From an uncultured Candidatus Saccharibacteria bacterium (GTDB taxonomy: Bacteria; Patescibacteriota; Saccharimonadia; Saccharimonadales; Saccharimonadaceae): a stretch of DNA of 64,000 nt. Shown piece after piece: positions 46,596 to 49,575 of this stretch. How positions within the stretch are numbered: the first letter of the stretch is position 1; the number at the start of each line of letters is the position of its first letter. Made by a program: the position numbers and the translations under genes. Location: NCBI GenBank assembly GCA_947302975.1, contig CAMYXA010000002.1, positions 26,627 through 90,626 on the forward strand. Direction: 5' to 3'. Under the pieces are notes generated by a model. The model searched no databases and was not told where the DNA came from. It worked only from the letters and a program-made list of their open reading frames with translations.

Positions 46596-46623
46596 GTCTG
46601 TGTTATAATTAGCTCACATCCAA

Positions 46624-46708
46624 GCCCGGATGGTGAAATTGGTATACACGTATGCCTTAGGAGCATATGCCGCAAGGTGTGCAGGTTCAAGTCCTGTTCC
46701 GGGCACCA
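46624..46708 (+). tRNA. tRNA-Leu (anticodon TAG) with encoded CCA
   Basis: Acceptor GCCCGGA/TCCGGGC, anticodon stem TATGC/GCATA with loop CTTAGGA, long variable arm, GGTTCAAGTCC T-arm. Confidence 0.97.
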
Positions 46709-46721
46709 AATTAGCTACTAT

Positions 46722-46756
46722 AAGAGGCCTCATTCATCTGGACGAGGCCTCTTTTT
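46722..46756 (+). terminator. Intrinsic terminator after the tRNA
   Basis: AAGAGGCCTC...GAGGCCTCTTTTT. Confidence 0.8.
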
Positions 46757-46853
46757 GTCGCTTATGAAAATCACCATAAACACTATTGACTTTTTATTCC
46801 GTTTATGTATAATAAAATACGTAAAAGGTCATAAAAACAAAAAAGGAGACAAA

Positions 46854-47375
46854 ATGAAAAAACAATTAATGACCGCAGCTGGTATTGTCGCCGGGCTTGG
46901 AGCCGTGGTTCTCCCACTTAGCTCTTATGCAGCCAATAGCGCAACGACAAATATCACGGCAAATGTTGCTGGCTCGATCTCAATCACAGCAACCGACGCT
47001 ATCACCATCGGTGATCTAACTGCCACCCCAGCAACCCTCGTTCCTGGTACATCTGGCACCGCAACGATTGCCCTCCACGTCGAGACCAACGTCGCTGGCG
47101 GCTTCAATGTTACTGCAACCCCAACCGCATTGACCAAGGGTTCTGACGCTATCAACTACAACGCTGCCGCAGCTGCTGGCACCCGTGGTTGGAGCATCCA
47201 AGGTGAAGGCGATGCATCCGCCTTTAGCGGCACCGGCGTCCTCTGGACCTTCGGTACTGCAAGCACCATCTCTGCAAACGAAGACAAGAACTTCACAGTT
47301 ACCGTTGGTACTGATACAACCACCCCAACTGGTACCTACACCGGTTCTATCTCATTTGTCGCTGCAAACAACTAA
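46854..47375 (+). CDS. Secreted 173-aa Thr/Ala/Gly-rich beta-sandwich protein (small WxL/pilin-like)
   Basis: Promoter TTGACT-16-TATAAT, SD AGGAG, signal peptide ending SYA, C-terminal GTYTGSISFVA. Confidence 0.6.
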   Translation: MKKQLMTAAGIVAGLGAVVLPLSSYAANSATTNITANVAGSISITATDAITIGDLTATPATLVPGTSGTATIALHVETNVAGGFNVTATPTALTKGSDAINYNAAAAAGTRGWSIQGEGDASAFSGTGVLWTFGTASTISANEDKNFTVTVGTDTTTPTGTYTGSISFVAANN

Positions 47376-47386
47376 TCTTTAGCAAG

Positions 47387-47415
47387 AAAAATATGCCCCT
47401 CGGGGCATATTTTTT
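47387..47415. terminator. Intrinsic terminator within the surface cluster
   Basis: AAAAATATGCCCC-tc-GGGGCATATTTTT. Confidence 0.85.
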
Positions 47416-47464
47416 GTGCCGCGTTTACGGCCTGTGTTATAATAATCCCATAACCAGGAGGTAA

Positions 47465-48373
47465 ATGAAAAAACATCTTATTTACAGTGCGATTGTATTA
47501 GTTGCCGCTATTTTTAGCTTTGGTCTTATTAGCAACACATATGCCGATGACAAACCAACCGTCACTATTTCTATTTCTCCAACTCGCGAATCCGCCGATT
47601 TGAAGCCAGGCGATAGCTTCACAGGTTCTTTCCGCGTCGCCTCCATCGGAACCGCCGCTTTCGACTACGCCATCTCTGCCAAGCCATTCACTGTCACAGA
47701 TCGCAATTATTCCTTCAATTACGGAGAATCAAACGAATTTACCAACACCGAAGATTGGGTGATCTTCGATAGTATCAGTGGTCACCTCGAGCCAAACTCC
47801 GTTGACCGCATCTATTACACCATCCATGTTCCACATGACGCTACCCCTGGCGGACACTACATTGCGCTCCTTGCTTCAACTAAAGGCGGCGAAGATGCCA
47901 TGATTAACGTTGAATCGAGTGTCGCTCTCATCGTCTACCTCACCGTCGAAGGCGAAATCAACCGCTCTGGCGATATTATCGAAAATAATATCCCTCAATT
48001 CTATCTAACTGGCCCAATTCATGTCGACTCTCTCGTAAAGAACACCGGCAACATCCATGGCGAAGCCACTTACGAAATCGAAATCCGCAACTTCTTCACC
48101 GATGAAGTTGCCTATACCAACGTAGAAAATCCAAGCACCTCCATCATCCTTCCAAAAACCGAACGTTTCTCGACCAGTAACTGGGATGGGACTCCAGCCC
48201 TTGGTATCTTCAAGGTTCGCCAAACCATCAGATTCCTCGACAAAGTCTCAACTGAAGAAAAAATCGTGATCATCTGCCCACTCTGGCTTATCTTCGTTAT
48301 CGTCTTCGTTATCGCCCTCCTCATTGTCCGCGCTTTCTCCCATAAGAAAAGCCAAGACAAAGTCTCAGCATAA
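47465..48373 (+). CDS. DUF916/DUF3324-like (WxL-interacting, CscA-like) protein with C-terminal TM
   Basis: Signal peptide; LKPG...V, TIHVP..A.PGGHY, VKNTGNIH motifs; C-terminal TM plus basic tail. Confidence 0.6.
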   Translation: MKKHLIYSAIVLVAAIFSFGLISNTYADDKPTVTISISPTRESADLKPGDSFTGSFRVASIGTAAFDYAISAKPFTVTDRNYSFNYGESNEFTNTEDWVIFDSISGHLEPNSVDRIYYTIHVPHDATPGGHYIALLASTKGGEDAMINVESSVALIVYLTVEGEINRSGDIIENNIPQFYLTGPIHVDSLVKNTGNIHGEATYEIEIRNFFTDEVAYTNVENPSTSIILPKTERFSTSNWDGTPALGIFKVRQTIRFLDKVSTEEKIVIICPLWLIFVIVFVIALLIVRAFSHKKSQDKVSA

Positions 48374-48514
48374 ACCCACCTAGAAACTACATAAAAAAAT
48401 AAGCTTGACAATTTTCAATTTTTAGCTATACTATTAGTTAGGAATATATTTGGTATGTTGCGAGCATACCGAAGAAAGCCAAAATAAAAACATAAAATTT
48501 AAAGAGTGTAGAGT

Positions 48515-49447
48515 ATGAAAAGACAAAGAAAGAATTTTGTCGGAATCATAGGATTGTTCGCTGTTGCCGCGATGACGGCGTTTGCGTACAATATTCCGAT
48601 CCCTAGCGTCAACGCAGAACCTGCGACCGCTACCACGACAATAACAGTAAATGTCGTCAATGAACGCATCCCAACGATGACTATCGTTGATCCTTCTGAT
48701 GGCGACGTTGTAACCGACCCAGCAGTCGACGTGCGTTTCACGTTCACGAACGCTGAATCCTTTGTCTTCCATATTAAGAACAATCGAACTGGCGTCACAA
48801 CCGATATCAACGAGCCACTCGATCCATCAATCGATCCAGCAGTCGGCTCCGGAACCCAAGTTAAAGCATTGAACCTCGAAGACTACGGCACCTACGGCGA
48901 CAGCTTCACTATTACAGTATCATCAGTTGGCGCTTCTAGCTTTGCCGAAGACTCAGTCACGATCAGCCTAAAAAGCATCAAGATTAGACCAGTCGACCCA
49001 GACGATCCAAACAACCCAGAAGATGATCCAGTTATTGAGATCACCGAAAAGATGCCAGGCGTCTGCTCTGTCAGCGTCCAGGTCTACCAACTCCCAGCAG
49101 GGAATCCACTCTTTGATCCAGCTATCGTCCAGAACGTAGAGTCGCTCACAGCCAAAATTGTTCTACCATTCGACGATGCTCTTGCTGAATCCGGCCAATA
49201 TCGTGTCGAGGTCACCCCACTATCCTGTACTGACCCAACCGACCCTGATGACGAACCACAGCCGGTCGGAACCCCAGAATCAATTATCATCGACTACACT
49301 AAACCAGAAACTCCAGTCGTACCGAATACTGGTCTCATGTTCGCTGGACTTAACATCTCGCAATCAGATTACATTATCACGGGTCTCGTCATCTTCTTCA
49401 TACTCAGCGGTGGCGTACTCATCTACCTCAAGAAATCTCGTCGCTAG
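48515..49447 (+). CDS. Surface protein with sortase-type sorting signal (VPNTG-TM-KKSRR)
   Basis: Signal peptide, Ig-like strands, DPDDP repeats, VPNTG followed by a hydrophobic segment and basic tail. Confidence 0.7.
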   Translation: MKRQRKNFVGIIGLFAVAAMTAFAYNIPIPSVNAEPATATTTITVNVVNERIPTMTIVDPSDGDVVTDPAVDVRFTFTNAESFVFHIKNNRTGVTTDINEPLDPSIDPAVGSGTQVKALNLEDYGTYGDSFTITVSSVGASSFAEDSVTISLKSIKIRPVDPDDPNNPEDDPVIEITEKMPGVCSVSVQVYQLPAGNPLFDPAIVQNVESLTAKIVLPFDDALAESGQYRVEVTPLSCTDPTDPDDEPQPVGTPESIIIDYTKPETPVVPNTGLMFAGLNISQSDYIITGLVIFFILSGGVLIYLKKSRR

Positions 49448-49471
49448 TCCGAATTAGGAAAACCGACCAAT

Positions 49472-49508
49472 AAAATAGGCGCTCAAAAACTGCGAGGGCG
49501 CCTATTTT
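49472..49508. terminator. Intrinsic terminator
   Basis: AAAATAGGCGC...GCGCCTATTTT. Confidence 0.75.
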
Positions 49509-49546
49509 GGTTGCGACTTAAGTTGCGAGCCCAAAACTCAGGCAAC

Positions 49547-49575
49547 AAAAAACCAGCCGCTTTGGGCTGGTTTTT
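49547..49575. terminator. Intrinsic terminator of rpmE
   Basis: AAAAAACCAGCC...GGCTGGTTTTT, 2 nt beyond the rpmE stop. Confidence 0.8.

Follow-up and report, generated by a model that had tools for sequence, protein, structure and literature searches.

Two pilus systems that polymerize by donor-strand exchange were described in 2026. In the Pam pilus of Candidatus Mycosynbacter amalyticus, the donor-strand-exchange pilins PamA, PamB and PamE, solved by cryo-electron microscopy, are accompanied by the PapD-like chaperones PamC and PamD, whose membrane helix is C-terminal, the single-domain PamT and the membrane-anchored PamR (Troman et al., bioRxiv 2026, PMC13278184). The Elr/WxL pilus, known from Enterococcus and other Bacilli, comprises the WxL pilins ElrD/C, the DUF916/DUF3324 chaperone ElrE, the LPxTG terminator ElrB and the sortase SrtA (Sleutel et al., 10.64898/2026.10.17.759780); ElrB of Enterococcus faecalis possesses a donor strand without an acceptor domain and has been proposed to terminate the fibre before anchoring by sortase A (10.64898/2026.10.17.759780). 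The Elr system is called confined to Bacillota in that preprint, which does not mention bacteria of the candidate phyla radiation (CPR), and the Pam paper mentions neither WxL nor DUF916 and names sortase only in passing (PMC13278184). Here we analyze a three-gene locus (genes A, B and C) in the genome of an uncultured Candidatus Saccharibacteria bacterium (GCA_947302975.1; 673 kb, 91% complete), contained in a window of 64,000 nucleotides from contig 2 of this genome (CAMYXA010000002.1, positions 26,627 to 90,626). We consider it likely that the three genes specify a minimal pilus without an usher, put together through donor-strand exchange with the help of a chaperone and anchored by sortase. 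A preliminary description of the same DNA compared the three genes to the csc (WxL) clusters of Firmicutes and suggested a fibre or surface complex; both the architectural analogy and the guess of a fibre stand up well, and in October 2026 WxL clusters were reported to build donor-strand-exchange pili (10.64898/2026.10.17.759780).

Predicted pilin, chaperone and anchor

The product of gene A consists of a signal peptide (residues 1-26), a strand at about residues 27-41, ANSATTNITANVAGS, and an immunoglobulin (Ig)-like domain ending in GTYTGSISFVAANN. The mature protein is a single domain of about 147 amino acids, small, secreted and rich in Thr (21%), Ala (17%) and Gly (12%), as had been noticed from the sequence, and at its end, ...SFVAANN, both a sorting motif and a membrane helix are missing. 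In the AlphaFold2 model of A (predicted local distance difference test score, pLDDT, 79.6), the first 15 mature residues (27-41) are unstructured in the monomer, and we propose that this segment is a donor strand. All of the top 10 Foldseek matches of the model are chaperone-usher pilins (FimG, CS20, CfaB and the pilin domain of PapG); further down, PapA, FimA, CsuA/B and Caf1 appear together with TasA and cannulae, with pilins dominating. The comparison with Csu-type pilins that the preliminary description had recommended yielded matches to chaperone-usher pilins including CsuA/B, with weak E-values.

Direct Pfam and NCBIfam scans gave no match over threshold for A, B or C, and neither did the three sequences produce a meaningful match when compared with the PDB; the A-family profile likewise had no match among PDB sequences. 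Profile comparisons connected A to the Pam pilins. Sub-threshold matches to NF058581 (CPR_Pam_pilin_C) were obtained for 4 of 12 close relatives of A and for 25 of 65 wider ones (best E 1.7e-8), and hhalign aligned the A family to Pam pilins at 95% (E 2.6e-8), with residues 30-172 of A placed onto Pam residues 175-336, which cover the linker (donor) strand and, after it, the C-terminal acceptor domain. At the level of sequence profiles, these results support a remote homology between A and the C-domain of the Pam pilins, and the most fitting description of A is a Pam pilin minus its N-terminal domain. The A family is large (2453 clusters at E<=1e-3, the best matches mostly 170-230 amino acids long), and the relatives in the best 150 of the 2453 clusters are all of the single-domain type.

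The WxL likeness suggested earlier holds for the fold of B, which resembles that of WxL-interacting proteins (WxLIP), and for the LPxTG-type protein C; it did not extend to A at the profile level. The WxL profile PF13731 had no match at E<=10 in the genome and none in the 12 close or 65 wider members of the A family. The motifs G-F-x-V (residues 83-86) and Y-x-x-x-I-x-F-x-A (162-170) of A recall GWxL and YxxxLxWxL, so that FxA in place of WxL remains a motif-level resemblance and is not a claim of homology.

The product of gene B was modelled by AlphaFold2 with a pLDDT of 87.8; behind a signal peptide it has two beta-sandwich domains, a C-terminal transmembrane helix (residues 273-301) and a basic tail, in agreement with the two-domain, C-terminally anchored protein read from the sequence at the outset. 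A word-indexed search recovered 46 homologues of 290-325 amino acids with 27-94% identity, almost all of which lack names. The top match among solved structures is the WxL-interacting protein of Enterococcus faecium (9i1y, 9i25; Foldseek E 3e-13), followed by the chaperone-usher chaperones CfaA, CsuC, EcpB, SafB, PapD and FimC, and also by RbmA, and the only match of the B profile to PDB sequences was EfmWxLIP1 (9i1y; E 0.14). The suggested check for DUF916 and DUF3324 gave a divided answer: 13 of 26 B-family members had sub-threshold matches to PF06030 (DUF916/WxLIP_PGBD; best E 9e-6), and the window protein itself matched neither PF06030 nor PF11797 (DUF3324), the latter having no match in the entire genome. 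The relationship to Pam chaperones is clear in sequence. We retrieved six canonical Pam loci, taken as matches above cut-off to NF058581 in Saccharimonadia genomes, and all six encode one or two full-length B-family members beside the pilins (hmmsearch E 1e-15 to 3e-49); furthermore, hhalign of the B family against the canonical Pam chaperones gave 100% probability (E 9e-41). The co-occurrence with Pam pilins and the profile alignment identify B, on sequence grounds, as a homologue of PamC/PamD, and as such a PapD/WxLIP-like chaperone with a predicted membrane anchor. The closest demonstrable family is the Pam pilus of CPR bacteria, which was absent from the preliminary description.

Many relatives encode a second chaperone, B2, between B and C. 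The orthologue in the source genome, a protein of 323 amino acids with 38-42% identity to the chaperone found at that position in the relatives, is encoded on another contig as a lone minus-strand gene between tuf and rpsJ (G000:C3:2989-3996), and the system is therefore split across the source genome.

In the product of gene C, a signal peptide and an N-terminal strand, TATTTITVNVVN, precede a beta-rich module that is conserved; then come a single Pro/Asp-rich stalk repeat and a sorting signal, in which VPNTG is followed by LMFAGLNISQSDY (with the spacer LNISQSDY), a hydrophobic membrane helix and KKSRR; the VPNTG-transmembrane-KKSRR protein discerned earlier also begins with a signal peptide. 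Members of the C family range from 196 to 628 amino acids, sharing the N-terminal module and the sorting signal and differing in the number of stalk repeats, and the P-x-T-G motif and the DY spacer are conserved in the family alignment. The genome encodes four proteins with a sorting signal, all of them VPNTG, and three sortases (PF04203 over cut-off). We propose that C is a sortase-anchored base or terminator subunit. Cell-wall sorting signals do not usually have a spacer like the one of approximately 13 residues that lies here between VPNTG/PDTG and the membrane helix, (L)NIS-x-x-DY-x-x-TG, with an Asp that does not vary across the aligned family; it was seen in the window (49322-49447) and in the C-family proteins of the related loci L005, L006, L014, L052 and L060.

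Most telling for C, its N-terminus after removal of the signal peptide is similar to that of the mature pilin from its own locus. The pairs of pilin and anchor strands are SATTNITANV and TATTTITVNV in the window, TGTTTVNVEV and TGTTTVNVQV in locus L064, QSAESEVNVT and QSQSSEINVT in L059, and DTTVVRVRVT and DSTILRVRVV in L011. Across 13 loci, the summed score of cognate pairs was 338 compared to 263 +/- 16 for permuted pairs (p about 3e-5), and the anchor of the same locus was the best strand match in 5 of the 13.

Linkage, distribution and locus layout

The preliminary description had named conserved synteny as a check, and the linkage turned out to be conserved. Among 33 distinct related loci, spread over many genera, 29 have an A-like gene immediately 5' of a B-like gene, and at least 13 encode a protein with a sorting signal directly downstream of the chaperones; a locus search with a narrower alignment, using one exact peptide pattern, found 9 loci. 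The database records of the closest relatives are Candidatus Saccharibacteria metagenome-assembled genomes and one such genome of a Candidatus Nanosyncoccus sp., several of the Saccharibacteria ones being from ruminant gut. In two related loci, an extra gene without a counterpart in the window lies between pilin and chaperone (L006:5329-5943 and L008:5380-5940); its product, 186-204 amino acids long, bears a membrane helix at its N-terminus and GFSC(K/E)K at its C-terminus.

B-family genes are present in 79 of the 101 sampled genomes of the taxonomic family. C-family genes were found in all 18 sampled genomes of the source genus and in 21 of 301 (two of them marginal) across the class, which leaves essentially none outside the source genus. 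Canonical Pam pilins show the opposite pattern, with 0 of 18 genomes in the source genus against 134 of 301 in Saccharimonadia. In the source genome, there was no canonical Pam pilin, no match to PamT (NF058579) and no PamR-like membrane anchor next to B; nor did the usher profile PF00577 have a match at E<=1 in this genome, which is 91% complete. The distribution of B, C and the Pam pilins therefore marks the locus as a genus-wide, reduced derivative or relative of Pam with a predicted sortase anchor.

Genes A, B and C lie on one strand, directly 3' of a tRNA-Leu gene (Table 1), as reported initially. The claim that each gene has its own promoter stood for A and C, whose promoter-like sites agree with the sigma-70 -35/-10 consensus; upstream of B there is only an extended -10. 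The extended -10 GTGTTATAAT is common to the regions upstream of tRNA-Leu (46598-46612) and of gene B (47433-47443), and this may be the usual promoter form in the source organism, one that a -35/-10 consensus scan misses. The strong terminator ascribed to gene A was recovered by folding as a hairpin with a U-tract. The strongly biased codon usage ascribed to the same gene was not: gene A has an effective number of codons (ENC) of 48.7, where the genome median is 46.5, and its codons lean just mildly toward those of rpsB and tsf.

Table 1. Positions of genes and regulatory signals in the window
Feature	Position	Strand	Basis
tRNA-Leu, anticodon TAG (neighbour, outside the pilus system)	46624-46708	+	ARAGORN
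Palindromic hairpin with T-run, 3' of tRNA-Leu	about 46724-46756	+	read from sequence
Promoter-like site of gene A, TTGACT-16-TATAAT, 11/12 consensus positions	46786-46813	+	consensus scan
Gene A, 173 amino acids	46854-47375	+	open reading frame
Intrinsic terminator 3' of gene A, 13-bp GC-cored stem and U-tract	47382-47419	+	RNAfold, dG (free energy) -22.6 kcal/mol
Extended -10 of gene B, TGtTATAAT	47435-47443	+	read from sequence; not flagged by consensus scan
Shine-Dalgarno sequence of gene B, AGGAGG	47455-47460	+	read from sequence
Gene B, 302 amino acids	47465-48373	+	open reading frame
Promoter-like site of gene C, TTGACA-16-TATACT, 11/12 consensus positions	48405-48432	+	consensus scan
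Gene C, 310 amino acids	48515-49447	+	open reading frame
Terminator-like hairpin 3' of gene C	49464-49513	+	RNAfold, dG -27.0
Second hairpin, bidirectional, shared with minus-strand rpmE	49548-49575		scan

The adjacency to a tRNA gene suggested a mobile island. This interpretation was rejected because the GC content agrees with that of the surroundings and because the relatives retain the cluster next to rpmE, rpsB and tsf, with different genes upstream of it. The canonical Pam loci L041, L044 and L046, from other Saccharimonadia, are flanked by ATP-synthase-like genes and genes for giant fibre-like proteins (>1700 amino acids), both reported near Pam operons in the Pam preprint (PMC13278184); the window locus is flanked by rpmE, rpsB and tsf instead.

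Assembly model and alternatives

The pilus could be assembled as follows. A, B and C would be exported via Sec, and the membrane-anchored B (and B2) would cap the open groove of newly exported A by donating a strand of its N-terminal domain. The N-terminal strand of the next incoming A (about residues 27-41) would then take the place of B, resulting in a head-to-tail, non-covalent fibre of A that grows from the base. C, with a donor-type N-terminal strand and no acceptor domain, would plug the last A and so end growth, after which a sortase would cut C at VPNTG and place the finished fibre covalently on the cell wall. The analysis shows the gene anatomy, the folds, the homology of B and A to Pam proteins, the linkage, the sorting signal, the sortases and the co-variation of the A and C strands; from homology and anatomy we infer polymerization, the order of the steps, sortase cleavage and function. 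The likely role would be contact with the host bacterium.

Adhesin subunits for such a fibre might be encoded elsewhere in the genome. About 17 proteins, 455-1138 amino acids long, start with a domain of the A type, and their C-terminal parts consist of DUF285/BspA-type leucine-rich repeats, Fibrobacter major paralogous (FISUMP) domains or a glycine-rich ALK/LTK-type domain. These large paralogues are plausible candidates for fibre-borne adhesins and would serve as adhesin subunits in the model outlined above; a comparable, rare N-terminal WxL module is described in the Elr preprint (10.64898/2026.10.17.759780). A cluster on contig C10 (G000:C10:11845-27421) encodes a 525-amino-acid protein with a FISUMP-like C-terminus, a third chaperone (305 amino acids) and five tandem paralogues of ~820-880 amino acids. 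All of its non-chaperone proteins have the N-terminal A-type module, and a DUF285/BspA-like repeat was found in the one tandem paralogue scanned. Further proteins with the module are encoded on contigs C1, C3, C4, C5, C7 and C8.

Several observations count against a donor-strand-exchange pilus at this locus. The Foldseek E-values of A are weak (best 7e-3) and its model was built on 12 sequences; A itself scores 18.8 bits (E 1e-3) against NF058581, below the cut-off of 55 bits; hhalign of C against PamR-like proteins reached just 54%; and the locus encodes no tip adhesin. In addition, the likeness of the A and C strands could partly stem from shared descent or from gene conversion near the signal peptide and not from selection by the groove.

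The absence of a tip adhesin would also suit a non-polymeric surface complex of the type envisaged in the older Csc model, with A as a monomer, or bound one-to-one to B or to the strand of C, in a wall scaffold or binding platform. The same set of components fits the view of WxL clusters held before 2026 (PMC9772566, PMC10599100), and a C:A heterodimer alone would account for the strand co-variation. We nevertheless regard such a complex as unlikely, given that A retains an N-terminal strand of its own of the same type as that of C, as self-polymerization needs, that polymerization is proven for its homologues, PamA and PamB, as well as for its analogue ElrD (PMC13278184; 10.64898/2026.10.17.759780), and that A has a strong promoter and a terminator to itself, as expected of a subunit made in excess. 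The promoter-like site of each gene and the terminator of A could, in turn, be taken to mean that three functionally unrelated secreted or anchored proteins are adjacent by chance; with the gene order kept in 29 of 33 loci across many genera, and with counterparts of all three proteins in two experimentally characterized pilus systems, this explanation is hardly credible.

The locus might instead encode an ordinary Pam pilus as published, membrane-anchored without sortase, with C as a neighbouring sortase-anchored adhesin that has nothing to do with it. The homology of B to PamC/PamD is clear by sequence, that of A to the C-domain of the Pam pilins is remote, the published Pam operons include no sortase substrate, and none of the six PamR-like proteins of the canonical loci has a sorting signal. 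This combination appears improbable all the same: the genome lacks a canonical Pam pilin, PamT and a PamR-like membrane anchor next to B; in at least 13 loci C directly follows the chaperones, and all 18 genomes of the genus have it; and the N-terminal strand of C co-varies with that of the pilin.

Comparison with known pilus systems

The predicted pilus shares with the classical chaperone-usher systems (Fim, Pap, CFA/I, Csu) the folds of pilin and chaperone and, presumably, donor-strand complementation and exchange. It differs from them in that there is no outer membrane and no usher, the chaperone is tethered, anchoring would be by sortase, and sequence similarity is not detectable. With sortase-polymerized pili (SpaA/Ebp), it has in common a sortase and an LPxTG-like signal for attachment to the wall; here, however, the sorting signal resides on the base subunit only, and pilin A has no LPxTG, so a pilus-specific sortase cannot join A subunits covalently.

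The similarities to the Pam pilus are more extensive. Both systems belong to CPR bacteria of the Saccharimonadia, appear to rely on Sec export, are usher-less and have a PapD-like, membrane-anchored chaperone as well as an Ig-like acceptor domain preceded by a donor strand, which are remotely homologous, and the chaperone pair B/B2 of the relatives corresponds to PamC/PamD. Unlike the Pam pilins, the pilin considered here is single-domain, without their nine-strand N-terminal domain, so that, like the classical chaperone-usher pilins, it has the donor strand at its N-terminus. PamT and PamR are missing, and the base subunit bears a sortase signal in place of a plain membrane helix.

The likeness to the Elr/WxL pilus lies in an LPxTG-type protein C whose N-terminal strand matches the donor strand of the pilin, following the logic of ElrB, in the presence of sortase, and in the fold of B, which is closest to WxLIP. 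In contrast to Elr, no WxL, DUF916 or DUF3324 profile was matched at threshold, and aromatic plus aliphatic residues occupy the places of both WxL motifs. In the candidate adhesin paralogues the pilin module is N-terminal and in the Elr ones C-terminal, and the C family, with its stalk repeats and lengths of 196-628 amino acids, contrasts with the 13-kDa ElrB. The phylum differs as well, the relatives here being Candidatus Saccharibacteria and Candidatus Nanosyncoccus.

Saccharibacteria spend their lives attached to a bacterial host, and the identification of the organelles they use for it is only beginning. Here, an entire genus of animal-gut Saccharibacteria is without two-domain Pam pilins and carries a simpler predicted pilus with a parts list of the Elr type, which tangibly connects two systems that had each been described as limited to one phylum. 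The system is very small, with one pilin, one or two chaperones and one anchor, and its reconstitution in E. coli or Bacillus should be simple. The pairing of the N-terminal strands in pilin and anchor makes the specificity of donor strands accessible at the sequence level, and the analysis flags a large family of candidate adhesins, about 17 genes in 673 kb, built on the same pilin module.

Going one step further, the Pam and the Bacillota WxL/Elr pili might form one ancient family of chaperone-dependent donor-strand-exchange pili of single-membrane bacteria, of which the variant in this genus, with its single-domain pilin, two membrane-anchored chaperones and a sortase-linked terminator that imitates the donor strand, would be a living intermediate; we advance this idea tentatively and would give it somewhat less than an even chance. 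If true, it would contradict both 2026 preprints, each of which holds its system to be phylum-specific, and would imply an origin or a spread outside Bacillota for the anchoring of such pili by sortase and that the roughly 17 paralogues with the A-type module are an exchangeable set of fibre-borne, host-binding proteins in a 0.67-Mb genome. Irrespective of this broader possibility, the locus is most likely a stripped-down variant of the two pilus systems described in 2026 and not a new kind of machine. Its contribution is the predicted single-domain pilin, a putative terminator of the sortase type, in a CPR bacterium, that carries a mimic of the donor strand, and a distribution that, within one genus, is mutually exclusive with that of canonical Pam pilins.

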